64,000 nt of DNA, taken from a virus. Below the pieces are notes generated by a model. It searched no databases, was not told the DNA's origin, and saw only the letters and a program-made list of their open reading frames with translations. Position 1 is the stretch's first letter, and each line of letters begins with the position of its first letter. Positions 4,682 through 32,107 of the stretch are shown in pieces. The stretch spans positions 32,001 to 96,000 of IMG/VR virus record IMGVR_UViG_3300032315_000774; one strand, given 5' to 3'. Made by a program: the position numbers and the translations under genes.

Positions 4682-5311
4682 ATGAACGACAAATACAAGA
4701 ACTGGCCGAGACCACGAGCTGTCGAGCAGAAGCTGGCAAATGCGGACCTCGTCGTCTTTGGTGACGAGTGGTCTCTCATCCACGGCTCCGCGAAGATCTT
4801 CTCTCTTCAGTACGAAGACAAGATGAAGCGATGGGAAGAGGTCTCTTGGCAGATCTTCGAGCTGATGTCAAAGCCACGCTTCTTGACTGAAATGCCTGTG
4901 CCGCCTTCGTCGATGGACGACGTCGACCTGCTTGACGTCTACGTTCAAGACATGCGGGCGTTTGCATGGTATAAAAGCGATCCAATGCATCAAACAAAGT
5001 GTGAGCTGTATGAGCAAGGTGCGTCAGGAGATGCACTCGCGCGTCAACGGTACGTGGAGATCTTCGCTTACTGCAGCGAGCACGACCGACCGAACAAGTT
5101 CTTCTTGTTCAAGAAGTTCGAGGTGGTCGGCGAGTCATATACGCGCTCTGTTGACGACATCGAAGACACCAACACGCCTTGTACGAAGTGCGGCGGTCGG
5201 AAGTGGATCGAGCACGATTGCGGCGACTCGTCGTGCGGGCAAGAGTACGACGTGTGCTCTGCATGCAGCGCACCGACGAGCAACGAGCAGCTCAAGAAGT
5301 CTGAGGTGTAA
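4682..5311 (+). CDS. hypothetical protein with C-terminal Cys cluster
   Basis: GGAG RBS; CTKC...C...C...CSAC. Confidence 0.55.
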   Translation: MNDKYKNWPRPRAVEQKLANADLVVFGDEWSLIHGSAKIFSLQYEDKMKRWEEVSWQIFELMSKPRFLTEMPVPPSSMDDVDLLDVYVQDMRAFAWYKSDPMHQTKCELYEQGASGDALARQRYVEIFAYCSEHDRPNKFFLFKKFEVVGESYTRSVDDIEDTNTPCTKCGGRKWIEHDCGDSSCGQEYDVCSACSAPTSNEQLKKSEV

Positions 5312-20732: not shown

Positions 20733-21161
20733 TCAGGTCACCGATCGGTCGTCGCGCTGGAAGATCTGTGCGCGCTCGACGCGTAGCGCTTCACGGTCGA
20801 GGCGCTTGATGTCTGGATGGCTCAGCGAAGGAAGCCCGAAGCGCTTCGCGATGGCTTCTTCCATGCGGTGTTCGAGCGCTTTGTACTCGGGCAGAAGCTG
20901 CTTGAGAGGCGCGCTGACATCGCCAAGATACGCCTCGGCTGCGTCGTGGAGCAGCCCCAAGAGCTGCAGCTCTTTAGGCGCATGCTCGCTCACCCAGAGG
21001 CAGTGGCTCGCGACGCTGTAGAAGGGCGAGGTGTGGCCAGTGAATCGGCAGATGTGTGAGAGCGCGTGTGCGATGTCGATGATGTCGATCGACTCGACCT
21101 GCGGCTCCAGGAGGTGGACGTACTTGCCGGTGTAGGTGAGGATCGTTGGCTCCACACGCAC
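20733..21161 (-). CDS. HD-domain phosphohydrolase (YfbR-like)
   Basis: DIAHALSHICRFTGH, YSVASH, LLHDAAEAYLGD. Confidence 0.9.
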   Translation of the reverse strand: MRVEPTILTYTGKYVHLLEPQVESIDIIDIAHALSHICRFTGHTSPFYSVASHCLWVSEHAPKELQLLGLLHDAAEAYLGDVSAPLKQLLPEYKALEHRMEEAIAKRFGLPSLSHPDIKRLDREALRVERAQIFQRDDRSVT

Positions 21162-21180
21162 TCCTTGGATGCTCGCAGCA

Positions 21181-21218
21181 GGTACTGCAGACAGTGCTAT
21201 CCGACTGCCTGCAGTACC
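21181..21218 (-). other. 15-bp inverted repeat hairpin (terminator or processing stem)
   Basis: GGTACTGCAGGCAGT-8nt-ACTGTCTGCAGTACC, no U tract. Confidence 0.55.
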
Positions 21219-21241
21219 ATCGACGACGTCGTCGGCTTTCG

Positions 21242-21340
21242 TCGCTGCTGAGCGTGACGCAGATGCTCTACTGATTGAGCTACACCCCCATCGAAAGGGG
21301 GCGTTCCGTTCTGCCCGGAAGTCTTCTGCAATAACAGCGA
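21242..21340 (-). ncRNA. circularly permuted tRNA-like (YrlA-like) module B
   Basis: GCAGA / degenerate T arm / CGCCCCC-loop-GGGGGTG / TAGCTCAATCAGTAGAGC D arm / TCTGC, closed by TCGCTGTT...AGCAGCGA. Confidence 0.6.
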
Positions 21341-21360
21341 ACTAGGATACGAACGTCATC

Positions 21361-21516
21361 GTGCTGCGTGGGTTCAGGGTCCTTCGGAACAGTTTGATCG
21401 TCATGCGCTGACCGCCGCTCTACCAGTTGGCGTACCTCCCCACCGATTGAGGAGGGCTGGCATCGAACCAGCAACCACGAGTCAGACTTGCTGATCTTGA
21501 ACTTGAACTTCAGCAC
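21361..21516 (-). ncRNA. circularly permuted tRNA-like (YrlA / Y-RNA-like) module A
   Basis: CTGAC / GCTGG-TTCGATG-CCAGC T arm / CCTCCTC-loop-GGGGAGG / D-arm-like CGCCAACTGGTAGAGCG / GTCAG, inside a long bulged terminal stem. Confidence 0.7.
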
Positions 21517-21529
21517 CCCGAAGGGATGG

Positions 21530-22291
21530 TTACGCTCCGTTCAGGAACGTGAAGAGCTTGCTCGCGTCGAAGACACCCTCGACCTCGCGTGCGTTGGCCT
21601 CGGCGATGGCCGCCTTGGCCGCGTGCATCAGCTTCTCGATGCGTTCGATCAGCGCGGCCTTCTTGGCCTCGTCCCAAGCACCCGAGAGCTGGAACTCGGT
21701 CCAGCGGCCGATGCGCTTCTGCGTCTTGCGGACGGTGGTCTGCGCGGGGTGCTTGTCCGACGCCGGGACGACCACCACGACCTCGTCGATCGAGGTGAAC
21801 TTGTCGCGTGCGGTGGGTCCTGACGAGGCCACCGTCGCGACGGCGCCGCCGATCACCACGGTCTTCGTGGCGATGAAGTTGACCTGCGGGTTGCGCGTCG
21901 GGATGCGCTTCGCCTGCGCGTGGAGGTCGCGGAAGATCTTCTCCAGCGCGATCAGCGTCGTCGTGGGGAGCTTCACCGTCAGCGCCTGACCGTCGACGAC
22001 GATGGCCGCTGACGCGCTCTGGTTCGCCACGTCGCGCGTGGCCATCAGCTCGACGTGCTGTCGAGTCACGGTGAACGCGCGCTCCAAGATCAGGTCGACC
22101 GTCTGCTCGACCTGCTTCGACTCCGGAGGCAGCCGCTCGCCGTCGTCTTCCGTTGGCTGGTACGTGCGATCCAGCCCAGTGAACTTGTCGGGCTTGTCGA
22201 GCAGCTTGTAGCCGTCGCTGGTGACGCGGTTCGTGATCTCGGCCTGCGCCTTGACCTGGCCGACGAGCGCGGCGAGTTTGATCTTGTTCAT
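21530..22291 (-). CDS. conserved helical hypothetical protein (resembles the family I recall as DUF7873)
   Basis: AAGGAG RBS; FTGLDRTYQP...GERLPPE, A.KHPAQ, GRW....SGA, A..EAN motifs. Confidence 0.7.
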   Translation of the reverse strand: MNKIKLAALVGQVKAQAEITNRVTSDGYKLLDKPDKFTGLDRTYQPTEDDGERLPPESKQVEQTVDLILERAFTVTRQHVELMATRDVANQSASAAIVVDGQALTVKLPTTTLIALEKIFRDLHAQAKRIPTRNPQVNFIATKTVVIGGAVATVASSGPTARDKFTSIDEVVVVVPASDKHPAQTTVRKTQKRIGRWTEFQLSGAWDEAKKAALIERIEKLMHAAKAAIAEANAREVEGVFDASKLFTFLNGA

Positions 22292-22336
22292 GATGTCTCC
22301 TCTTTCGAGGGTAGGTTAGAGGTGGAAGAAGAAGTC

Positions 22337-22465
22337 GGAATGTGCGAGTGACGCGGCGTTTTTCACCTTGCGGCGAAGCGAAGGATTTGAACCTTCTACC
22401 CAATGCTTATCATGCATTTGCTCTACCGATGAGCTAGCTTGTAAGCCGACGTCGGAGCACATTCC
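22337..22465 (-). ncRNA. tRNA-Ile(GAT)-like domain embedded in a longer stem, in the leader of the 253-aa gene
   Basis: D, anticodon and T arms intact; acceptor only 4 bp; enclosed by GGAATGTGC/GCACATTCC. Confidence 0.65.
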
Positions 22466-22467
22466 TA

Positions 22468-22586
22468 CGGGGTGTGATGGATTCGAACCATCTGGCTTGT
22501 ATGGCCATCGCAGAGCCCTTTGCAGGACGAGAGCGCGACCAGTTTGCAACTTTACATAGTTGGTGAGGCCCAGCCTCAAACACCCC
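22468..22586 (-). ncRNA. tRNA-like RNA 1 with giant variable-arm insert
   Basis: GGGGTGT/ACACCCC acceptor, GATGG-TTCGAAT-CCATC T arm, 51-nt insert shared with RNA 2. Confidence 0.75.
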
Positions 22587-22603
22587 TTATTGTCAAAGAA
22601 CCA

Positions 22604-22724
22604 TGGACCTGTGTGGATTCGAACCACTTGCTTGTATGGCCGTCGCGGAACTCTTTGCGGAGCGAGAGCGCGACCAGTTTTCTGATGCCCAGTATCAGTG
22701 GGTTGCCATTACCCGTTCAGGTCC
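22604..22724 (-). ncRNA. tRNA-like RNA 2 with giant variable-arm insert
   Basis: GGACCTG/CAGGTCC acceptor, GTGG-TTCGAAT-CCAC T arm, insert 44/51 identical to RNA 1. Confidence 0.75.
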
Positions 22725-22787
22725 GTTGTCGCCTCGGACTCGCGTCGTCAGCGACGAGAGGATGTATCGCTCAGCTCGTTCGCGATG

Positions 22788-23378
22788 TCAACCGCCTCCG
22801 AACACGCCCGAGCGCAAGATCGTCGACGACGTCTTCTGGCCCGAGCGCAAGAACGTCTGCACTGCCAACGCCAAGGACGCCGCGCTCTGCATGATGAGCG
22901 GCAAGAACTCGCCGGTCTCGCACGTCACCGCGCCCGCTGCCGCCTCGTCGGGGACGAACTGCGGCGACCACCGCACGACGCCCATCTCTCCGTTCGGAGC
23001 GAGCGCGCCGTGCACCAGAGGCACACCGTTCGCCGTCGCGAAGCTGATGAGCGTGCGTCGGGCTTCGATGTTGTCCGTCGCGTCGACCAGCAACGTCGGG
23101 TTGTGAAGCGTGGTCTTGACGTTGTCAGACGTGATCTTGCCCGGGGCTGCCACGTACGATGCGCGCGTTCGACCGAAGTTGAAGTTGGCGCTTCGGACGA
23201 ACGCTTGCGCCTTGTTCACGCCCAACGTCTGGGTGCTGAAGGCTTGCGTGGTGAGGTTCTTGGCTTCGACGCGGTCGAAGTCGACCAGCGTGAACGTCGC
23301 GTCTTCGTTGCGCAGGAGCATGGCCGCATTCGAGCCAAGAGCCCCTACGCCGATGATGTAGATGTGTGGCTGCTTCAT
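22788..23378 (-). CDS. E1-like ThiF-family adenylyltransferase
   Basis: IIGVGALGS, DFDRVEAKNLTTQ, NKA, VDATDN; candidate Cys in TCE. Confidence 0.9.
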   Translation of the reverse strand: MKQPHIYIIGVGALGSNAAMLLRNEDATFTLVDFDRVEAKNLTTQAFSTQTLGVNKAQAFVRSANFNFGRTRASYVAAPGKITSDNVKTTLHNPTLLVDATDNIEARRTLISFATANGVPLVHGALAPNGEMGVVRWSPQFVPDEAAAGAVTCETGEFLPLIMQSAASLALAVQTFLRSGQKTSSTILRSGVFGGG

Positions 23379-23395
23379 CGTCGCAGCATGACACA

Positions 23396-24082
23396 CTACG
23401 CTTTCACATGGAAGACGTTGGTGAACGCTTGATCGAGCGTATCTGCCAGACCGTGAACGTCTGATACGTGCATCCAACGTCCATACACACCTCGAAAGTG
23501 CGGAGAGTCGTCTGTGGTGAGCTGGATTTGAAGTTCTGAGTTCTTCGGTGTCGCTCCTCGAAGGAACGTCGCGTAAAGCACAGCTTTCCGCTTGTTCTCA
23601 CCGTAAACGACGAAGATGTAGAGATGGAACAGACCGACGAGGTACATCGGCGAGAAGGTCCGAGCTGTCGAACGGGTCTCCTCGTGCACGGTCAAGTGCA
23701 CCTGACGCTCACGCTCGGCGAACACTTCGATGATCTTCTTCATCTCTCGGCGGCGCGCGCCGAACCCGGCCATGTCCTCGTCCGACGGCCGCGTCGTCAC
23801 GTTGTAGCCCCAGCCTCCCGCGTACAGTCGCGACGAAGTGTCTCCGAGCAGTCGCGTCGAGGTGTCGTCGACTGGGAGCTTCATCAGCTCAGGTTGAGCA
23901 GCTTCGGACAGATCGTAGAGCAGCGTCCACGTGGGCATCAGCAACGCGTGAGGTACGAACAAGCCGTCACCTGCGTCTTGACCGTCTCTCCACGCGTTGA
24001 GCGTGTACTCGTTCCACGTGTCGGTCGTGGGAGTGCGGTCGCGGAAATCCTTCAGAAGCTGTTGGAAGTGAGCGTTGGTCAT
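23396..24082 (-). CDS. hypothetical protein
   Basis: 228-aa ORF preceded by TCGACA-17-TAGTGT. Confidence 0.6.
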   Translation of the reverse strand: MTNAHFQQLLKDFRDRTPTTDTWNEYTLNAWRDGQDAGDGLFVPHALLMPTWTLLYDLSEAAQPELMKLPVDDTSTRLLGDTSSRLYAGGWGYNVTTRPSDEDMAGFGARRREMKKIIEVFAERERQVHLTVHEETRSTARTFSPMYLVGLFHLYIFVVYGENKRKAVLYATFLRGATPKNSELQIQLTTDDSPHFRGVYGRWMHVSDVHGLADTLDQAFTNVFHVKA

Positions 24083-24089
24083 GCCCAGA

Positions 24090-24118
24090 CACTAGCGCGA
24101 AGCATGCGCTGTGTCGAA
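24090..24118 (-). promoter_or_regulatory. sigma70-like promoter TCGACA-N17-TAGTGT
   Basis: Canonical spacing; TAGTGT also precedes genes at about 1945, 23395 and 29347. Confidence 0.45.
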
Positions 24119-24120
24119 CA

Positions 24121-24750
24121 TCAGCGCTTGTCGCCTGAGCCACCGAGCGCGTTGCGCGCCTGCCGATCGAGCAGCTTCTGCTTGTTGCGCGCTGCTACTT
24201 CATGCAGCGACACAGTACACGTCGACTGCACGAAGTAGAACGCGTGCTGCAGTAACTCGAACATCTGCATCCTTCGATCGCTGATGTCGCCACGCGCGTC
24301 GCGGATCGTCTTCTTGCTGAGCCCTGCGAGCTGCCTGGTGATCTTCCTCAGATCGAGGTGATCCTGCGTCGTGACGATGGTCTGCGTCAGTCTCGCGGCT
24401 TCTTCGATGTGCAGGAGCTGCACGAGCTGCGACATGTACCAGAGGCAGTCTCCTGCTTCTGCGATGACCGCATCGACAACTTCGTCCCAGCGACTACTGC
24501 GCACGTTCGCTTGAATGTGCACATCTTGAAGCTCGTGCAGCTCTTCGATGAGACCCAGCACCAGATACACCCACGAGGTGTCGACGTCACCCACCATCAC
24601 TTGCGGGTAGATGGCCGTCGTTGGCGTGAACTCGCGGTACGCCTTACCTTCAGGTGAGAGCCAGAACTGGTAGAACGATACACGTTTCGTCTCTACTAGT
24701 TGAGTTACGCTCATGTCTTCTGCTCCTTCGCGCATTTGCCTTTGAGGCAC
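24121..24750 (-). CDS. MazG-like NTP pyrophosphohydrolase
   Basis: GLIEE, EAGDCLWY, NxxKLxDRxxRxxLxGSGDxR. Confidence 0.85.
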   Translation of the reverse strand: MPQRQMREGAEDMSVTQLVETKRVSFYQFWLSPEGKAYREFTPTTAIYPQVMVGDVDTSWVYLVLGLIEELHELQDVHIQANVRSSRWDEVVDAVIAEAGDCLWYMSQLVQLLHIEEAARLTQTIVTTQDHLDLRKITRQLAGLSKKTIRDARGDISDRRMQMFELLQHAFYFVQSTCTVSLHEVAARNKQKLLDRQARNALGGSGDKR

Positions 24751-24954
24751 ACCCAGCGCCCATCAGCATCTTTCGTCCAGCCTGCACGTTGACCTGGCTT
24801 CTTGCTGCCGCCAGCTTCGCCACCTTGACCTGTAGACGGCTCGTAGAAGCGCCGAAGTTTCTTGCAGACCGGACAGCGGTGCCGCAGCGCCTTGTTGTTT
24901 CGCATGGCTGTAAAGCCGAAGGGCGCTCGGTTCTTCGCCGAACGCCCTTCAAGC

Positions 24955-25308
24955 TCACTCGTCTTCGTCGTCCGAGTCCTCGTCGTCCTCGTCGTCTTCG
25001 TCGTCCTCGTCTTCGTCGTCTTCGTCCTCGTCTTCGAAGTCGTCGTCATCGACGTCGAGATCGTCGAGGTCGTCCTCGTCGTCCTCGTCCTTGTCCTCGG
25101 GGTCCTTGCCGGAGCCGAAAGGGACCTTGGGGCGGAGCATCACGCTCTCGGGCGTGGTCTCCGTCGCGGCGAAGCGCTCGATGACGAACGACTCGGGGAT
25201 GTGCTGGCCCGTCGTCTCGGCCGCGATGGCGCGGATCTGCGCGTCGGTGGCGTCTGCTTCGATCGTGTGCTCGTAGAGACGCCCGTCGAGTGTGATGCTC
25301 AGTCTCAT
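24955..25308 (-). CDS. ubiquitin-like (beta-grasp) protein ending ...RPKVPFG plus a ~50-aa Asp/Glu tail
   Basis: AAGGAG RBS; beta-beta-alpha-beta pattern over ~65 aa; adjacent JAB and nearby E1. Confidence 0.6.
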   Translation of the reverse strand: MRLSITLDGRLYEHTIEADATDAQIRAIAAETTGQHIPESFVIERFAATETTPESVMLRPKVPFGSGKDPEDKDEDDEDDLDDLDVDDDDFEDEDEDDEDEDDEDDEDDEDSDDEDE

Positions 25309-25652
25309 GTGTGCTCCTTCTTCTTGCCACGTGCTCGAAGTTCATCGAGCCATGACGTAGGCAAGACGTCCCTTACGACAGAACTCCAGGCGTCGTCAAA
25401 CGTCACCACGTACTGCTCGATGTGGCGACCGAACGCGATGTCGAGTGCTTCGAACGTCTCCAGGTCGATGGAACTCGGCACCGCACGTCCAGACCACGGA
25501 TGCAGATGCGCGACCGCGATCGACTGGTCACGCCGCGCCCACAGCTCGTCGAAGAACGTGCGCGAGTCGGGGATGTACGTCGACGTCGCGTCCGCTGGCT
25601 CGTGCCAGTAGACGGGCGCTCCGTCGACGAGGATGACCGCCAGCTCTCTCAC
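25305..25652 (-). CDS. JAB/MPN+ isopeptidase
   Basis: N-terminal E; HLHP...PSSID (HxHx7SxxD JAMM motif). Confidence 0.85.
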   Translation of the reverse strand: MRELAVILVDGAPVYWHEPADATSTYIPDSRTFFDELWARRDQSIAVAHLHPWSGRAVPSSIDLETFEALDIAFGRHIEQYVVTFDDAWSSVVRDVLPTSWLDELRARGKKKEHT

Positions 25653-26320
25653 GTGAGCAGCTTCTTCAGCGCGGCGACCGCTGCCGTCAGCGCAGGGCTG
25701 GTCAGCGGAGTCTCACACGCGACCGACAGCGACACGAGGTGCGTACGAGGGAAGTTCGACAGCATCTCCCTCTTCGAGACCATGTGAACTTCCACCACGA
25801 ATACGCCCTGTGTCGACTTGAGGACGGAACTCTTGAGCGCCTTGAGTTCGCTGAAGTCCTTTTGCTGAAGGACGAGCATCGCCCCGAACTCGGAGCAGTA
25901 CACCCAGTTGTCCGGATCGACGAACACGTACAGCTGCTGCTGCTTCGGCTGCGTCGACCAGTGCGTGAAGACCGTGACCGAAGGGCCTGTGCCGTACGTG
26001 ACCTGCTGGAAGCCGCCACGCGGCCCGAACTGCACGTCGGAAGGAGCGCCGAACTTCTGCTCCAGCTCGAACGGCGTGACGAACTCGCGGACGAGCCCGA
26101 ACTGCATCTTGCCGCTCGGTAGCGTCGTGTGCATCGGCTCGACCTTGCCGAGGTGCATCAGCGACTCGTAGCCCTCCATCTCGACCAAGATCGGGTAGCC
26201 CCAGCCGACGACCACGCGCGCGTTCTTGTCTTCGACCACCGACTGCCACGGCCCGAGGATCTTCTTCTCCTGCAGCTCGTTGATCTCGTCGTGCTCTGCC
26301 TTCATGTCCCGCTTGCTCAT
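25649..26320 (-). CDS. hypothetical protein
   Basis: 223-aa ORF coupled to JAB by GTGA overlap. Confidence 0.6.
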   Translation of the reverse strand: MSKRDMKAEHDEINELQEKKILGPWQSVVEDKNARVVVGWGYPILVEMEGYESLMHLGKVEPMHTTLPSGKMQFGLVREFVTPFELEQKFGAPSDVQFGPRGGFQQVTYGTGPSVTVFTHWSTQPKQQQLYVFVDPDNWVYCSEFGAMLVLQQKDFSELKALKSSVLKSTQGVFVVEVHMVSKREMLSNFPRTHLVSLSVACETPLTSPALTAAVAALKKLLT

Positions 26321-26329
26321 GATATTGTC

Positions 26330-27229
26330 TCACCCGTGCCGATAGATGACCAGACGTCCAAGGCGCTCGGCTTCGCGCACGACGGACGGCAGCGACTCCA
26401 GCGTCAGCCAGGTGTCGCCCTTCGTTCCTTCGTCTCACTCCTCGGAGTGGTACTCCGCGCGCAGACAGATGCCAGAGTCGACGACTCGCAAGCGCTCGTC
26501 GACGACACATGCGAGGCGCTGCCCGTCGACGACGTAACGCACGTCGTACGTCTGCAGCTCGCGCTGACGCGTGATCGAGAGCAGCGACGATCGCGTCACG
26601 GCCAGCGCGAGGCGCGCACGACCTTCGACTGTCGTCGCGAGTCGAGCAGCCTCTTCTGCTGCACGACGGGCGCGTTCGCGTGCGTCTGCAGCTTCTTGCT
26701 CGCGACGCAAGCGCTCCTGGTACTCGCGCGCTGCACGCTCACGCGCTTCACACACGCGCGTCAGGTCAGCGTGTACGTCGCACAAGATCGGCCGCCCTGT
26801 GAACGCGCGCTGCTCCTCGTACGCTTGGCGTGCGATGTCTTCGTCGCCCACGAGCATCGCGGCGCCGAGGCACACGACGTCAGGTCCCCAGACCGTCAAC
26901 TGGACACGCGTGAACGGTAGAACGTCTTGCGCCAAGAACACGCGCGTCACGAACGACGAGCCGATCTTCTTCGATCGACGCGTCAGCGCATGCTCTGTGC
27001 GCACCGTGCTCCCGACGAGGTAGCCGTGACGTGTGCGAACTTTCGGAGTCTCCGCCTCGCCTTCGAGCACGGCACGACGAGCCGCCACCTTCCACGCGTA
27101 GAAGCCGTGTGTTGGTGGCGCGCGATCGACTGTAAACGCTGACGAGTCCGGCAAGAAGATGCTTGGGCCTCCGAACCACGGAGCGGTGACGATGCGAGGT
27201 TCAGTCGACAGTAGTTCTTGCCAGCTCAC
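26330..27229 (-). CDS. putative E2-like conjugating protein with in-frame TGA at 26435-26437
   Basis: VVDSGICL resembles the E2 GxICL catalytic motif; frame continues 34 sense codons past the TGA and ends 9 nt before the next ATG. Confidence 0.55.
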
Positions 27230-27530
27230 GACAGCCTCGTACCACAGATGCCAGGCCGACTCGAACATCTGCATCGAGCGGGAGGAGGTGCGCCCAGAAG
27301 GCGTCGATGATGGCGTCATCTGTCTGTTCCGAGTGTGCTTGAACGAAAGCCTTGAGACGAGGCATCAGCTCGCGCAATCGCCTGTAGAAGCTCGCACGCG
27401 AGATGTCGAGACGTGTTGCTGCCAACGAACGCACGTTCCCTGCGAGGGCCAACTGGACAAAGAACAAGTCCTCGTCCAGCTGGCCCCGAGAAGCGCGTGC
27501 GACAGCTTGCAGCGCTTCACCGTACGTCAT
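27201..27530 (-). CDS. Fis-type HTH protein
   Basis: GNVRSLAATRLDISRASFYRRL matches the HTH_8 pattern. Confidence 0.65.
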   Translation of the reverse strand: MTYGEALQAVARASRGQLDEDLFFVQLALAGNVRSLAATRLDISRASFYRRLRELMPRLKAFVQAHSEQTDDAIIDAFWAHLLPLDADVRVGLASVVRGCRELARTTVD

Positions 27531-29311
27531 GCGCGTGCCCACACCGGCAGCGGGAGCAGCTTCGTCGCGGCGATCTGCTGCGCGAGGTCTGCACGCACCG
27601 TGGTCGTGGTCGACGACATCGGCGCCGACTCCATGAGGCGAGCCAGCGTGCGAGGCAGCGCGTACGCGTCCTCGATCGATGCCTGCGTCAGCTCGAAGTA
27701 CGGCACACCCGTGACCTGCGCCGCGCTTCGCCAGTAGCTCGGAACGCCCTTCACGCGGACCACTGGCATGCACACCACCGGCACGCCCCACCGCGCCATC
27801 GCGCGCTCCCACTGATCACGCGAGAAGCCCTCTTCCTCGTCGCCGATGAGCATCATGACGACGTCACCGCTCGGTCGCGGCACGCCACAGAGCGCCCCGA
27901 AGATCGATGCGTGCGTCGTCCCACCGCTCACCGACAGACCCCGGAACGACAGCTCGATCTCCGCTGCGGACGGCCCGCGCAGCTCCACGATCCGCGCGGT
28001 CGTGTTGAACGCCACGACCGTCACCTTGTCGAGAGGCAACGCCGTCAGGATGCGCCGAAGCGTTTGCTTCGCGACCTCGATGGCGTTCTGCATGCTCGGC
28101 GAGATGTCGAGCACCATCACCACGTGGAGGTCGTGCAGCGCCTTCTCCGTCACCGTTCGAGCTGCCGCCGACGCAGCGGCCTCCAGCTTCGCCTGGACGT
28201 CGCTCCGCGTGACCCGCGTGGCGATGTTCGCCGCCCGCATGTCCTCCGATGCCTTCAGCGCCGCCTCCCATGCCGTCTTCACGACGGGCACGTCGAGCAC
28301 GCCCAGCTCTTCGAGCGTCGGCGTCAGGATGACCAGCTCCTTCGGCGAGACCCCGCCCGCCTGGACCGCCGCGACCATCACGGCACGCGTCAGCTGCTCG
28401 CTCTTGAGCGCACCCGTGAGCTGCCGCCACGACGGCCGCTCCGTCTGGATGCGCTCGCACACCTGGCGCTCGGTCAGGTCGTGCCACGACGCCAGCTTGT
28501 CCCAGGCGACGCCCACGGCCACCGTGCGCATGCCGACTGCATCGGGCGACTGCTTCCAGCGCAGCGCCTTGTAGAACGCCTCAGAGCCCTTGTAGCGGCT
28601 CAGCGACGCCAACCGCATGATCGAGCGGCGGAAGCCCGCGCGCACGAGCCCGGCCAGCATGCGCGGGTTGTCCGTCCGGTAGTCGAGCCAGCGGTGGATC
28701 GCCGCGTCCCAGCGCCCCTTGGTGCTGAACCCGGCACGCCGGTTGATCTCGCGCACCTTCGGCGTCATCAACAGCGCGTGCACCTGGAGGAGCATGCGCG
28801 GGTTGAAGTCGCGGTCCTTCGCGAGCGTCAGGATCATCGCCTCACCGACCGCACGGAAGTCGTCGTCTCGAACCTTCTCCCCTGCCAGCTCGATCGTCTG
28901 ACCGCTGCGCTCCTGCACCAGCATGAACGCCGCGAGCGCGATCTTGAGGTCGCGGTGCTCCTGCGCGAACGCCCACGAAGCCCACTTCGCGGCGAACAGC
29001 TGGTCGAGCTTGTAGACCTCGTAGATCTGCGTGTACACACGCTCGGCCGTCGCCTCGTGCACGCCAGGCTCGACGATTGACGCGACGCGGCGTGCACCCT
29101 GCACGACGTGCTTGCCATCGTCAGAGAGCTTCCCGAGGCTCACGTGGCGCTTCTTCTGCGAGATGTCGAATACCTCGCCGTCGGACTTGATCTTGATGGG
29201 CTTCCAGACGCCGCCCACGTCGACGCCAGGGCGCCCGTGGTACGTGTGTTGGGTGTCGGCGATGAGCGAGCGGATGATGCGATCCGCTGCGCTGAGTGCT
29301 GCGTTCTCCAT
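27527..29311 (-). CDS. large helical + vWA domain protein (possibly Ro60/TROVE-like)
   Basis: MIDAS DISPS, VVAFN, GGTT, IGDEE at the C-terminus; long alpha-helical N-terminal region. Confidence 0.75.
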   Translation of the reverse strand: MENAALSAADRIIRSLIADTQHTYHGRPGVDVGGVWKPIKIKSDGEVFDISQKKRHVSLGKLSDDGKHVVQGARRVASIVEPGVHEATAERVYTQIYEVYKLDQLFAAKWASWAFAQEHRDLKIALAAFMLVQERSGQTIELAGEKVRDDDFRAVGEAMILTLAKDRDFNPRMLLQVHALLMTPKVREINRRAGFSTKGRWDAAIHRWLDYRTDNPRMLAGLVRAGFRRSIMRLASLSRYKGSEAFYKALRWKQSPDAVGMRTVAVGVAWDKLASWHDLTERQVCERIQTERPSWRQLTGALKSEQLTRAVMVAAVQAGGVSPKELVILTPTLEELGVLDVPVVKTAWEAALKASEDMRAANIATRVTRSDVQAKLEAAASAAARTVTEKALHDLHVVMVLDISPSMQNAIEVAKQTLRRILTALPLDKVTVVAFNTTARIVELRGPSAAEIELSFRGLSVSGGTTHASIFGALCGVPRPSGDVVMMLIGDEEEGFSRDQWERAMARWGVPVVCMPVVRVKGVPSYWRSAAQVTGVPYFELTQASIEDAYALPRTLARLMESAPMSSTTTTVRADLAQQIAATKLLPLPVWARA

Positions 29312-30019
29312 GCCGCAGTCTCTACGTGAGACGCTTGCTGCCGTCAACACTACCGATACAAGAACATCATGCTTGATGTATCGGAATCGCCACCTCGGAC
29401 TCCCGTGCAGCTTCGTCCGCCCATGCCTTCATCGCTTCAACCGTTCGCTTGTCGAGGCCAGGAAATCCAACCTCCAGAATGACGCACGCCATGCCGCAGA
29501 AGAACATGTACGCTTCGGTCATGTCTTGCGACGCCATCGGGTCTTTGGGAGTCGCCTGAAGAGCCAGCCGCGCTGCTAACACGCGCCCCGCTGTGGCGTA
29601 GAACTCTTGCTCGATGTCCGTCGCCATGTGCCCGAGCTTCTGTCGGAGCGCGTCTCGCTCTTGTCGGAGCTGTTCAAGTTCGGTCCGAAGTTCTTGCTCG
29701 GTCATGTGCTTCTACTAGCACAGCTCGACAGCCATCCGCACCAGCAGTCGCTTGTCGTCTGCACGCAAGAACAGCTGCGCTGCTTCCAGCGGCAAGTTGC
29801 AGGCGATACACCGCATCTGACCAGAAGCCGCATCGGGCTCGTACACATAGAACGTGTACATGTACTTCGGCTTTGCGACTGACGGCTCCGACAGCAGAGA
29901 GGGGGACTTCGGCGCTGGTTTGCAGGCTTCGTCGAGAAGCTGACGATGCTTCTTGATCGCGTCCAGTATGTTCGGGTCGTCGTAAGCGACTTGCGCCTTG
30001 AACGCCCACGCTGGCTTGC

Positions 30020-32029: not shown

Positions 32030-32033
32030 CATG

Positions 32034-32107
32034 TGTGACAAGCAGGAGTTGAACCTGCGACCTCATGCTTATCAGGCATGCGCTCTGACCACCTGAGCTA
32101 CTGTCAC
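32034..32107 (-). tRNA. tRNA-Ile(GAT)
   Basis: CATGC-CTGATAA-GCATG. Confidence 0.95.

Follow-up and report, generated by a model that had tools for sequence, protein, structure and literature searches.

The window, by which we mean the whole 64,000 nt stretch of viral DNA that was analysed, contains on its minus strand an element of approximately 129 nt (22465-22337) in which two helices enclose a tRNA-Ile(GAU)-like body. A gene on the same strand that codes for a 607-aa protein with a predicted Ro60-like fold is situated 5.06 kb upstream of the element, with other genes in between, and the outer helix of the element ends 45 nt upstream of the ATG of a 253-aa DUF7873 gene, the spacing given in an initial annotation of this DNA. 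The features of the locus, together with the phage's own tRNA-Ile, are as follows:

32033-32107, minus strand: the phage's own normal tRNA-Ile(GAU), called by ARAGORN
27527-29350, minus strand: presumed partner gene, 607 aa; the true start may be at about 29311
22788-23477, minus strand: ThiF/E1-like gene (Pfam ThiF, 8.3e-22); likely start at Met34, about 23378
22465-22457, minus strand: 5' strand of P1, the outer handle helix, GGAAUGUGC, paired in the MFE fold with 22345-22337
22454-22456, minus strand: J1, 5' side of the internal loop, UCC (fold and family rows)
22453-22445, minus strand: 5' strand of P2, the inner handle helix, GACGUCGGC, with U22449 bulged (MFE fold)
22437-22443, minus strand: UACAAGC, with the family motif ACA-N-GC; its final bases open the residual acceptor
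22376-22440, minus strand: tRNA-Ile(GAU)-like body (match to RF00005)
22440-22437 with 22379-22376, minus strand: residual acceptor of 4 bp, AAGC with GCUU (sequence)
22434-22420, minus strand: D arm (sequence and RF00005 alignment)
22418-22402, minus strand: anticodon arm, with loop AUGAUAA and anticodon GAU at 22411-22409
22401-22397, minus strand: variable loop (alignment)
22396-22380, minus strand: T arm (sequence and RF00005 alignment)
22375-22364, minus strand: GNRA-capped hairpin CGCC-GCAA-GGUG, abutting the acceptor 3' strand without a linker (MFE fold)
22358-22363, minus strand: single-stranded A/C-rich linker AAAAAC; the J3 linkers of the family rows are A/C-rich as read by eye, uncounted
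22357-22350, minus strand: 3' strand of P2, GCCGCGUC (MFE fold and family covariation)
22346-22349, minus strand: J4, 3' side of the internal loop, ACUC, containing the family CUC ahead of G
22345-22337, minus strand: 3' strand of P1, GCACAUUCC (MFE fold and family covariation)
ATG at 22291, minus strand: 253-aa DUF7873 gene, with a GAGGAG ribosome-binding site between the end of P1 and the ATG

In a local search the Rfam tRNA model RF00005 matches 22376-22440 on the minus strand with a score of 47.2 bits (E 1.7e-8; gathering score 29), and the D, anticodon (GAU), and T arms, which the initial annotation had described as near-perfect, are all aligned and present. The alignment is limited to model positions 4-67 of 71, and the outer acceptor pairs are therefore missing from the element; tRNA positions 1-3 and 70-72 are unable to pair, and ARAGORN, which reports 27 tRNAs across the window, makes no call at 22337-22465. 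The description of a 4 bp acceptor lacking a normal end is thus borne out. The anticodon loop is canonical, with U33, GAU, and A37, the D and T loops conform to the tRNA consensus, and the arms follow in the native order, D, anticodon, and T, with the RNA ends exiting from the acceptor. The normal tRNA-Ile(GAU) at 32033-32107, whose presence elsewhere had also been pointed out, shares with the element the D stem and the core of the anticodon stem (in an alignment with the phage's tRNAs), as well as the anticodon loop and the UUCAA T loop, but the element differs from it in having just four acceptor pairs, no free ends, a hairpin insertion, and 17 extra pairs.

The MFE fold of 22470-22330 (minus strand) has an energy of -51.5 kcal/mol and recovers all of the helices of the element, including the two enclosing helices with one bulge and the hairpin after the acceptor that were initially noted; 200 shuffles of this segment have a mean of -36.8 kcal/mol (sd 3.7; z -4.0) and none of the 200 is as stable. 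P1 is 9 bp long and P2 is 8 bp with one bulge, so that together they form a handle of 17 base pairs around the tRNA body, and P1, the loop, and P2 have the length of about two helical turns in the fold. With both ends buried in the conserved handle duplex, the RNA is predicted to be unchargeable as tRNA-Ile.

Sequencing reads of three strains (X2, X11, and X14) cover the element, and those of run X19 do not. X2 has one change within it, 22448 C to U in the RNA, which keeps the P2 pair as G.U, X11 has zero changes, and X14, the most distant strain, has 88 differences, 18 of which are listed; with so few changes, the close strains constitute almost no test of covariation. X14 is an RNA library, and the contig over the site is 8989 nt long, spans several genes, and may be DNA, so it does not prove transcription. 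No promoter-like or terminator-like sites were found in a search of 21000-23600.

Related RNAs occur in other large phages as well as in contigs from bacteria or MAGs, and we collected a family of 44 members with a common architecture: P1, an internal loop, P2, ACA-N-GC, a tRNA body, an A/C-rich linker, and CUC. Model R2, built from one relative and without the element, has full-length matches at eight other phage loci and scores the element at 29.6 bits, versus 29.4 bits for an ordinary tRNA-Pro region. Model R3 defines the family as a P1 of 8-10 bp and a P2 of about 8 bp, covarying, around a tRNA-type body, and its seed consists of 13 full members, the element included, plus one partial tRNA row. 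Across 92 sources (734 kb) members score at least 83.9 bits with R3 and all else at most 52.4 bits, the score of the element itself (83.9 bits) being circular because it sits in the seed. Beyond the seed, R3 has 11 matches in 22 whole phage records (65.6-104.7 bits) and 25 matches in 17 of 77 bacterial/MAG loci holding the 607-aa protein (70.5-105.6 bits; next best 46.6 bits).

Conservation of the outer helix in relatives had been chosen beforehand as the question on which the initial annotation should stand or fall, and both P1 and P2 are found to covary in every pair. In the seed set (14 rows) 95.3% of cells are paired versus 70.7% in shuffled sets, with none of 500 shuffles reaching the observed value, in alignments that are model-guided and biased towards structure; model-guided alignments were used because MAFFT, applied to five members, misplaced P1 and P2. 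The non-seed set (31 rows), aligned in the same structure-biased manner, has 94.7% of cells paired versus 67.8% (again 0/500 shuffles), and pairing falls to only 30-44% of cells when the partners are slid by 1-3 columns. In each set, changes on both sides are seen in 10/10 P1 pairs and 8/8 P2 pairs. The single-stranded segments are also conserved, with ACA-N-G[CG] in 44/44 members, CUC in 43/44, and CUCG in 40/44, the element having ACUC-G at 22349-22345; J1 is 3 nt in the element and mostly 5 nt elsewhere in the family. Hairpins comparable to CGCC-GCAA-GGUG are an optional insertion, seen in 4/44 members and capped by a GNRA loop in three of these. We considered whether the 4 bp acceptor stacks on the GCAA hairpin as a mock capped 8 bp acceptor, and rejected this as a family rule on the same count.

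The pairing of the flanks was also compared with that of 267 ARAGORN tRNAs. The flank duplex energy of the element is -30.2 kcal/mol versus a mean of -16.1 kcal/mol (sd 5.3), and 2/267 are as low. Both family motifs, which the element also has, coincide with a flank energy of -22 kcal/mol or below in 9/267 tRNAs, and eight of these nine rows lie within family members, three rows being one element in overlapping loci. This test supersedes a regular-expression signature scan, which finds 32/44 members, misses the element, and gives 0-7 chance matches per resampled window. Megablast and blastn searches of 22250-22800 against GenBank phages give matches at the tRNA level only, and searches of IMG/VR with three DNA patterns yield only chance matches for a 15-mer and none for two longer patterns. 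We found no description of a family of handle-plus-tRNA-body RNAs in the literature, on which the supplementary phage hits of Chen et al. 2014 could bear, and the family is apparently undescribed.

The family is linked to the gene for the 607-aa protein. Homologues of this protein are present in 19/24 records with an E1-like gene and in 0/39 records chosen for DUF7873 alone. R3 matches of at least 65 bits are found in 14/16 searched phage records with the protein, in all 14 on the strand of the protein gene, and in 1/5 records without it. In the bacterial/MAG loci, 25/25 R3 matches are on the strand of the protein gene, and 60/77 of the loci with the protein have no R3 match of at least 70 bits within 6 kb. 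The RNA cluster starts directly after the E1-like gene here and in 11/24 related loci; a homologue in L201 is 40% identical to the E1-like protein of the window. The positions of members vary, in that some immediately precede the Ro60-like gene, others follow the E1-like gene or form tandem arrays, and units sit in or adjoin tRNA arrays.

By sequence, the 607-aa protein is recognised through its C-terminal part, with Pfam reporting vWA only; Pfam TROVE has no match in it or anywhere else in the record, and searches of PHROGs and PDB sequences with the 607-aa and 253-aa proteins returned nothing useful. The predicted structure has an N-terminal Ro60/TROVE-like helical-repeat domain in addition to the vWA domain. 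When it is compared with the PDB using Foldseek, Ro60 structures take all of the first 11 places (E 1.3e-7 to 8.4e-6), with alignments of about 540 columns and TM up to 0.52; 9L5Y and 9KOP, from work on the Ro60 of Thermus phage phiLo, are among the fold matches of the whole protein and of its N-terminal domain. A VIA search with the whole model gave vWA domains only in its top 50, and the N-terminal domain was therefore folded alone. Compared with 48,161 chains, these 390 aa match D. radiodurans Rsr (Z 9.4), the Thermus phage Ro60 (Z 7.8), and Xenopus Ro (Z 7.4), with every chain beyond the top three at Z 6.7 or below, although according to the caveat of the search tool a Z below about 13 may for helical repeats reflect a common arrangement. 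The quality of the predicted structures is moderate (pTM 0.53-0.63) and the best Ro60 alignments have an rmsd of 7.7-8.6 Å; on these predictions the protein is best read as a divergent Ro60, a distant look-alike.

Ro60 and its Y RNAs are known in animals, in about 5% of bacteria, and in a few phages. In the passages available from the relevant papers, YrlA (RF02553) is a tRNA-mimicking Y RNA of bacteria and mycobacteriophages (PMC4201824; bioRxiv 10.1101/312249), and phage-encoded Ro60 with nearby Y-like RNAs is established (PMC4201824; PMC12135203). The element resembles YrlA in having a terminal stem made from the two ends of the RNA and a tRNA-like module with D and T arms, in lacking a free CCA end, in the occurrence of several such RNAs per locus, and in having its gene near a Ro60-type gene and on the same strand. 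It differs in that YrlA is permuted (T arm, closed acceptor-like hairpin, D arm) with its ends at the anticodon-stem position, whereas the element is in native order with a complete anticodon arm, its ends exiting at the acceptor, and in that the presumed partner protein escapes Pfam TROVE. A search of 21800-23600 with the YrlA model gives no match even when E values up to 10 are allowed, and its only match in the window is weak (21411-21480, 20.3 bits). The motif by which bacterial and phage Y RNAs are recognised, GNCGAAN0-1G ('CGAA') near the 5' end in the accounts excerpted from PMC4201824 and PMC12135203, is absent from the element, which has UCCGACG instead, and is found in the J1 and P2 region of 1/44 members. 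One relative does carry a circularly permuted YrlA-type unit with the same P1/loop/P2/UACAAGC handle, as a weak R2 match; together with the position of the family beside the Ro60-like gene, this supports the third Y-like topology that was among the readings first put forward. In the broad sense the element is also like Y RNAs in its long stem of 5' and 3' ends with a loop, in which 18/18 pairs covary, but its distance of 5.06 kb exceeds the 4 kb from the Ro60 gene given in the available part of Chen et al. (PMC4201824).

We read the topology of the element as matching that of D. radiodurans Yrn1, going by its published description (passages of PMC4201824), to which the comparison is confined. 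There, the orientation of the T and D arms relative to the ends is unlike that in YrlA, and the intervening stem-loop can be depicted as resembling an anticodon arm with a 5 bp stem; Yrn1 is further portrayed in these passages as lacking both a clear D arm and a variable arm, and as having a 6 nt loop and a metazoan-like Ro-binding helix. The element differs in that its tRNA body is nearly complete and its handle motifs are unlike those of Yrn1. In Thermus phage phiLo, Ro60 has the partner RNAs Yrl1 and Yrl2 beside its gene, selected by the CGAA motif, and hijacking of the host PNPase is proposed (passages of PMC12135203). This parallels the combination here of a phage-encoded Ro60-like protein with phage-encoded RNAs adjoining its gene, but the Yrl1 and Yrl2 passages of that paper are without a tRNA body inside a handle.

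We consider it probable, at roughly 0.65, that the element is a Y-RNA-type partner of the divergent Ro60, in which a common handle is joined to a tRNA body. From the structure, conservation, and covariation of the element, its family, the same-strand linkage, and the Ro60-like fold prediction, we infer the following course of transcription, processing, protein binding, and tRNA-body action. The RNA is most likely part of a long minus-strand transcript, from which it would be excised. The Ro60-like ring protein (27527-29350) would then bind the handle, as Ro60 does the terminal stem of Y RNAs, and the non-aminoacylatable body would be displayed as a tRNA mimic that recruits, occupies, or diverts a tRNA-binding factor. 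Candidates for this factor are a nuclease, a modification enzyme, or the host PNPase, as in known Ro60/Y-RNA particles.

An alternative that we regard as rather unlikely is that P1, the loop, and P2 are a processing cassette, an RNase III-type site that frees the tRNA or tRNA-like body, with the handle discarded and the Ro60-like protein not involved. In its favour are the two-turn length of the handle, the location of units in or beside tRNA arrays, and an acceptor strand of 7 nt in 10/44 bodies, some of which are called by ARAGORN (for example tRNA-Met at L215 3855-3927 and tRNA-Ile at L214 5215-5290). However, the acceptor strand is only 2-3 nt in 24/44 members, the element among these, which could not yield working tRNAs, and the 27 ordinary tRNAs of the window are without the handle (R3 at most 50.2 bits versus 83.9 for the element). 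The family follows the Ro60-like gene and not tRNA arrays generally, with no match of at least 65 bits in the searched tRNA-array DUF7873 loci that are without the protein, and the single-stranded ACA and CUC are conserved beyond the needs of a generic double-strand site.

We find it improbable that the element is instead a free-standing tRNA-Ile decoy or sponge for a host anticodon nuclease or a tRNA-Ile-specific enzyme, with its closed ends only protecting it from charging and decay; an anticodon-nuclease decoy or sensor was among the readings of the initial annotation. The canonical AUGAUAA loop, the consensus D and T loops, and the likeness of the body to the phage's own tRNA-Ile(GAU) fit such a role, and the 36 different anticodon loops among the 44 members could be taken for a decoy panel. 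But these differences between members mean that Ile identity is no family trait, some of the loops are 6 or 8 nt or lack U33, the family is tied to no nuclease, and the invariant handle motifs and same-strand linkage to the Ro60-like gene are left unexplained. A decoy is moreover compatible with the Y-RNA-type reading as the role of the body, and so is no true alternative to it.

The initial annotation also offered a cis-acting leader of the 253-aa DUF7873 gene, controlling translation or stability, perhaps through a tRNA-recognising protein, and proposed a search for the same element upstream of homologous genes. The 45 nt spacing, the GAGGAG site within it, and the lack of a promoter-like or terminator-like site between element and gene would suit a leader. 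Nonetheless, among the DUF7873 loci to which R3 was applied, none has a member immediately preceding the DUF7873 homologue, and only one (L160, whose record has the protein) contains members (at least 65 bits); these lie 3.3-3.7 kb upstream of the homologue, behind a tRNA array, and the unit equivalent to the element in the phage of L215/L160 is 3.7 kb from the homologue. With other members placed ahead of the Ro60-like gene, behind the E1-like gene, or in tandem, the cis-regulatory proposal is not supported: a leader role is unlikely because the family is not linked to the 253-aa gene, and we attach very little weight to it. Pfam TROVE matches are present in 6/40 DUF7873 records. No close relatives of the DUF7873 protein were found in IMG/VR or the JGI metagenomes. 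Proteins 92% and 53% identical turned up in the search for close relatives.

That the element is a decayed tRNA-Ile pseudogene with flanks pairing by chance, as its truncated acceptor, the missing ARAGORN call, and its similarity to the phage's tRNA-Ile could indicate, is barely credible and is rejected because conservation with covariation extends to every pair of P1 and P2, with both-side changes across phages and bacterial contigs of differing handle sequences, flank pairing far stronger than that of ordinary tRNAs, and two family motifs at the expected places.

A wider, and doubtful, proposal is that the Ro60-like ring, the handle-sharing RNAs with their different uncharged tRNA bodies, and the ubiquitin-like genes that accompany them (E1-like, E2-like, JAB, and Ubl) constitute one machine, an RNP that would read or imitate the tRNA pool, for example sensing or blunting tRNA-cleaving host defences. 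Each body would be directed at its own tRNA-specific factor, and the machine would couple this activity to the tagging of proteins.

If the element is the Y-RNA-type partner of a divergent Ro60, it belongs to a hidden branch of these systems, in which neither partner is picked up by the usual models, since Pfam TROVE misses the protein and Rfam YrlA misses the RNA. The RNAs have a modular design, one conserved handle with exchangeable tRNA bodies that carry many anticodon-like loops and range from complete tRNAs to bodies with a 3 bp acceptor, and the handle (helix, ACA-N-GC, and CUC-G) is a simple practical signature for finding them. The family ties a Ro60 system to phage tRNA arrays and E1-like genes, and its natural series of variants opens the question of recruitment by tRNA mimics to experiment.

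The element at 22337–22465 on the minus strand lies in a 137-kb IMG/VR virus record that is an estimated 61% complete, has ~62% G+C and carries 27 tRNA genes. Every helix named in the initial annotation is present on this strand, both as read from the sequence and in the minimum-energy fold (-51.5 kcal/mol, against -36.8 ± 3.7 for 200 shuffles; z -4.0), which reproduces all of them. The Rfam tRNA model matches 22376–22440(-) with 47.2 bits, covering only positions 4–67 of 71, the acceptor has 4 bp, and ARAGORN, run over the window, makes no tRNA call at the element, bearing out the description of a tRNA-Ile-like domain without a normal acceptor end. The D stem, anticodon-stem core and UUCAA T loop are common to the body and the phage tRNA-Ile(GAU) at 32033–32107. 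The distance from the end of the outer helix, P1, to the start codon of the 253-aa DUF7873 gene (21530–22291) is 45 nt, much as first estimated. The parts of the element, as read from the sequence, and the units upstream of it are:

22465–22457 with 22345–22337, minus strand: P1, outer helix, 9 bp
22453–22445 with 22357–22350, minus strand: P2, inner helix, 8 bp with one bulged U
within the element, minus strand: acceptor remnant, 4 bp
within the element, minus strand: D, anticodon (loop AUGAUAA, anticodon GAU) and T arms, all complete
immediately 3' of the acceptor 3' strand, minus strand: hairpin CGCC-GCAA-GGUG
22604–22724, minus strand: tRNA-shaped unit upstream of the element, ~120 nt
about 22470–22586, minus strand: second such unit, ~120 nt

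These are the three tRNA-shaped units, the element being the third, of a 496-nt gap between a ThiF/E1-like gene (22788–23477) and the DUF7873 gene. Neither ARAGORN nor Rfam calls the first two, each of which combines an acceptor stem of 7 perfect pairs with a D-like hairpin, an anticodon loop of irregular form, a UUCGAAU T arm and, at the variable-arm position, a conserved ~50-nt insert (85% identity over the 54 nt compared) made up of a helix followed by UACAAGC, the motif also found in the handle of the element (P1, an internal loop with CUC, P2 and ACA-N-GC). A homologue of these units precedes a C-type unit in the related locus L201 (2856–2976), and a 145-nt tRNA match of the same kind is present in L250 (5356–5500). 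The same two clusters contain mini tRNA-like units (L201 2640–2710, L250 5658–5716) with an acceptor stem, D-like hairpin and T arm and no anticodon arm, resembling the tRNA-like domain of tmRNA (26.7 bits in L250 with the Rfam tmRNA model). L201 comes from the phage that also contains L160 and L215. No promoter-like or terminator-like sites were found in 21000–23600, which fits co-transcription of the region.

Two circularly permuted tRNA-like units lie downstream of the DUF7873 gene, one of which (21411–21480) has a weak Rfam YrlA match (20.3 bits, model positions 23–86). YrlA-like permuted tRNA mimics, consisting of a T arm, a closed 7-bp hairpin and a D arm, often with AUCGAC-type motifs, occur immediately 3' of DUF7873 genes in the window (21242–21516(-)) and, just past position 4700, in L121–L200; with coordinates read by eye, roughly 20 phage records out of 40 show the arrangement. 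Pfam TROVE matches in only 6 of the 40 DUF7873 records, and DUF7873 may be a second, Ro-independent partner of YrlA-like permuted RNAs.

GenBank phages contain no near DNA match to the element region, a pattern search of IMG/VR for the element gave nothing above chance, and no close relatives of the DUF7873 protein were found in IMG/VR or JGI metagenomes. Contigs from four public sequencing runs aligned to the window provide three strains covering the element: one (X11) has no listed difference inside it, another (X2) has one, at 22448, changing a P2 G-C pair to G.U, and the most distant (X14) has 88 differences, 18 of them listed. These differences are compatible with the structure, although the test is a weak one.

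Relatives were found with covariance models. A model of the window's own tRNAs (R1), run over 80 loci with DUF7873 homologues, gave a single match cut to model positions 5–68, at 267–328 of L160. Folded together with its flanks, the match shows the design of the window's element: P1 of 10 bp, then an internal loop, P2 of 8 bp, UACAAGC, a tRNA body whose acceptor has 3 bp, and a linker rich in A and C. The unit directly follows a ThiF/E1-like gene (40% identity to that of the window), and is preceded by tRNA-like units of the same kinds as those in the window, one of them a permuted YrlA-type unit carrying the same P1/loop/P2/UACAAGC handle. It lies 3.7 kb upstream of the DUF7873 gene of that phage. 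A search with these two E1-like proteins as bait yielded 24 IMG/VR loci, the majority belonging to phages of 100–600 kb, and in these loci R1 found more tRNA cores limited to positions 5–68, with similar folds.

A model from the L215 copy alone (R2) gave full-length matches of 40.6–85.5 bits in L203, L204, L210, L213, L214 (three), L215 (second copy), L216 and L217 (two). The element itself scores 29.6 bits, against 29.4 for an ordinary tRNA-Pro region, so its membership required other evidence. In a model-guided alignment of 13 full members and one partial tRNA row (A9), standard pairs make up 95.3%, against 70.7% when shuffled and 33–45% with partners slid by 1–3 columns; changes on both sides occur in 10/10 P1 and 8/8 P2 pairs, and none of 500 shuffles attains any of five measures. 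A second model (R3), built from A9 and including the element in its seed, separates members (at least 83.9 bits) from all else (at most 52.4) over 92 sources (734 kb). It found 11 additional non-seed copies in 22 whole phage records (65.6–104.7 bits), and 25 copies in 17 of 77 bacterial or MAG loci encoding a Ro60-like protein (70.5–105.6 bits; next 46.6). Aligned on their own (A12), 31 copies outside the seed pair at 94.7%, against 67.8% shuffled and 30–44% slid, again with changes on both sides of all ten P1 and all eight P2 pairs and values reached by 0/500 shuffles. Both alignments are fitted to a model and thus biased towards pairing; the low slid controls and the large number of double changes nevertheless point to genuine covariation.

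All 44 members have ACA-N-G[C/G] ahead of the body, and 43 have CUC separating the 3' strand of P2 from that of P1 (CUCG in 40), the exception being an alignment shift. Before U8, 24 members retain 2–3 nt of the acceptor strand, 10 retain 5–6 nt and another 10 retain 7 nt, and Rfam recognises members only as truncated tRNAs (model positions 5–66 in L250, for example). Since there are 36 distinct anticodon-type loops, and a 3'-linker hairpin like that of the window's copy in just four members (three with a GNRA loop), the GAU anticodon and GCAA hairpin are individual rather than family traits. Four members with full acceptors have one A.C mismatch each, by inspection at 4:69 (L215 3855–3927), 6:67 (L203 3396–3468) and 5:68 (L210 3403–3476 and L214 5215–5290); that such a mismatch recurs in stems without any other fault may be deliberate.

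Whether the window's copy belongs to the family was examined independently of any model containing it, by pairing the 32-nt 5' flank with the 45-nt 3' flank and comparing with 267 tRNAs that ARAGORN calls in the window and in 105 loci. The flank duplex has -30.2 kcal/mol, against a tRNA mean of -16.1 (sd 5.3), and only two tRNAs are as low, one itself a family member. The element carries both family motifs at the expected places. Nine of the 267 rows have both motifs and also a flank energy no higher than -22; eight fall inside R3 family members (three being one element in overlapping loci), and the remaining one matches R3 at a borderline score. We regard membership in the handle-plus-tRNA-body family as well supported.

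A 607-aa ORF, 27527–29350(-), heads the minus-strand gene run that closes with the E1-like gene. Pfam identifies only a C-terminal vWA domain, TROVE has no match anywhere in the record, and hundreds of full-length homologues at 40% identity are annotated at most as vWA proteins. In a Foldseek search of the PDB with an AlphaFold model (42 sequences; mean pLDDT 83, pTM 0.53), the top 11 matches are all Ro60 (E 1.3e-7 to 8.4e-6, ~540 columns, target-normalised TM up to 0.52), including Xenopus, human, D. radiodurans and Thermus phage phiLo structures. Because vWA domains dominated VIA-align comparison of the whole model, residues 1–390 were folded alone (pLDDT 84.5, pTM 0.63); among 48,161 representative chains the best is D. 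radiodurans Rsr (Z 9.4, 248 aligned, rmsd 8.6), followed by phiLo Ro60 (Z 7.8) and Xenopus Ro (Z 7.4), with remaining chains at most 6.7. The scores of the Ro60 matches are moderate for a helical-repeat protein. As the fold ranking agrees with the TROVE-like-plus-vWA architecture, we call the protein Ro60-like; on these models it is probably a divergent Ro60. A six-stranded beta segment (residues ~42–93) is predicted to open its N-terminal domain.

Homologues of this protein are present in 19 of 24 records with the E1-like gene and in none of 39 picked for DUF7873 alone (the window's own record aside). Among 16 whole-searched phage records with the protein, 14 have an R3 match of at least 65 bits, which in every case shares its strand with the Ro60-like gene; the remaining two records are fragments (28 and 16 kb); of five records without the protein, one, an 18%-complete fragment, has a match. 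The RNA follows the E1-like gene in some phages, and in others lies 94 nt to ~1.5 kb before the Ro60-like gene. In bacterial/MAG loci each of the 25 matches has the orientation of the Ro60-like gene and lies up to ~830 nt upstream, directly downstream or 2–4 kb downstream; 60 of the 77 loci have no match. One member (L259 10130–10251, 73.4 bits), 2.3 kb downstream of a Ro60-like gene, is on a 799-kb scaffold of the isolate Paraliomyxa miuraensis SMH-27-4, so the system extends beyond phage contigs and MAG bins.

The Ro60-like and ThiF/E1-like genes travel together (window 22788–29350(-), loci L202–L221), the latter 2–8 kb downstream on the same strand in phages whose positions were compared. 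Genes first listed between them were HTH, E2-like, JAB, Ubl and MazG; Pfam confirms only ThiF, a weak MazG and vWA.

The main rival explanation, that the handle is merely a processing site, is weakened: the window's ordinary tRNAs lack handles, the acceptor is truncated in most bodies, and it is the Ro60-like gene, not tRNA arrays, that the family tracks. The element as a leader, and hence the proposed cis-regulator of the downstream DUF7873 gene, fails on the gene contexts of family members, which do not fit that role. A tRNA pseudogene fails as well: conservation of the outer helix in relatives had been named beforehand as the test of a decayed tRNA, and P1 and P2 covary at every pair in both alignments.

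According to Chen et al. 2014 (PMC4201824), YrlA RNAs are found near Ro60 in > 250 bacteria and phages, and Yrn1 of D. radiodurans is oriented oppositely to YrlA and has an anticodon-like arm. A 2025 paper (PMC12135203) shows a phage Ro60 that binds two phage-encoded Y-like RNAs and host PNPase, and a jumbo-phage survey notes that a few phages have TROVE proteins accompanied by 'a tRNA-like partner'. We found no description of the handle-plus-tRNA-body family in the literature searched (supplementary tables of Chen et al. 2014 aside) or in Rfam 15. Like Y RNAs, its members combine a stem formed from both RNA ends, with a conserved loop, and a tRNA-like module, and lie, several per locus, next to a Ro60-type gene and on its strand. 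They differ in having native tRNA order with an anticodon arm, other handle motifs (CGAA in only 1/44) and exchangeable tRNA bodies, and in that the protein branch is undetected by TROVE. The third Y-like topology proposed in the initial annotation is in keeping with this order, stem and same-strand Ro60-like gene. From the Y-RNA-like design, the Ro60-type neighbour and these four differences we read it as a Y-RNA-type partner of a divergent Ro60, for which we infer binding, processing and a function of the body: the handle would be the part bound by the Ro60-like protein, and the uncharged tRNA-Ile-like body would be a mimic put on display.
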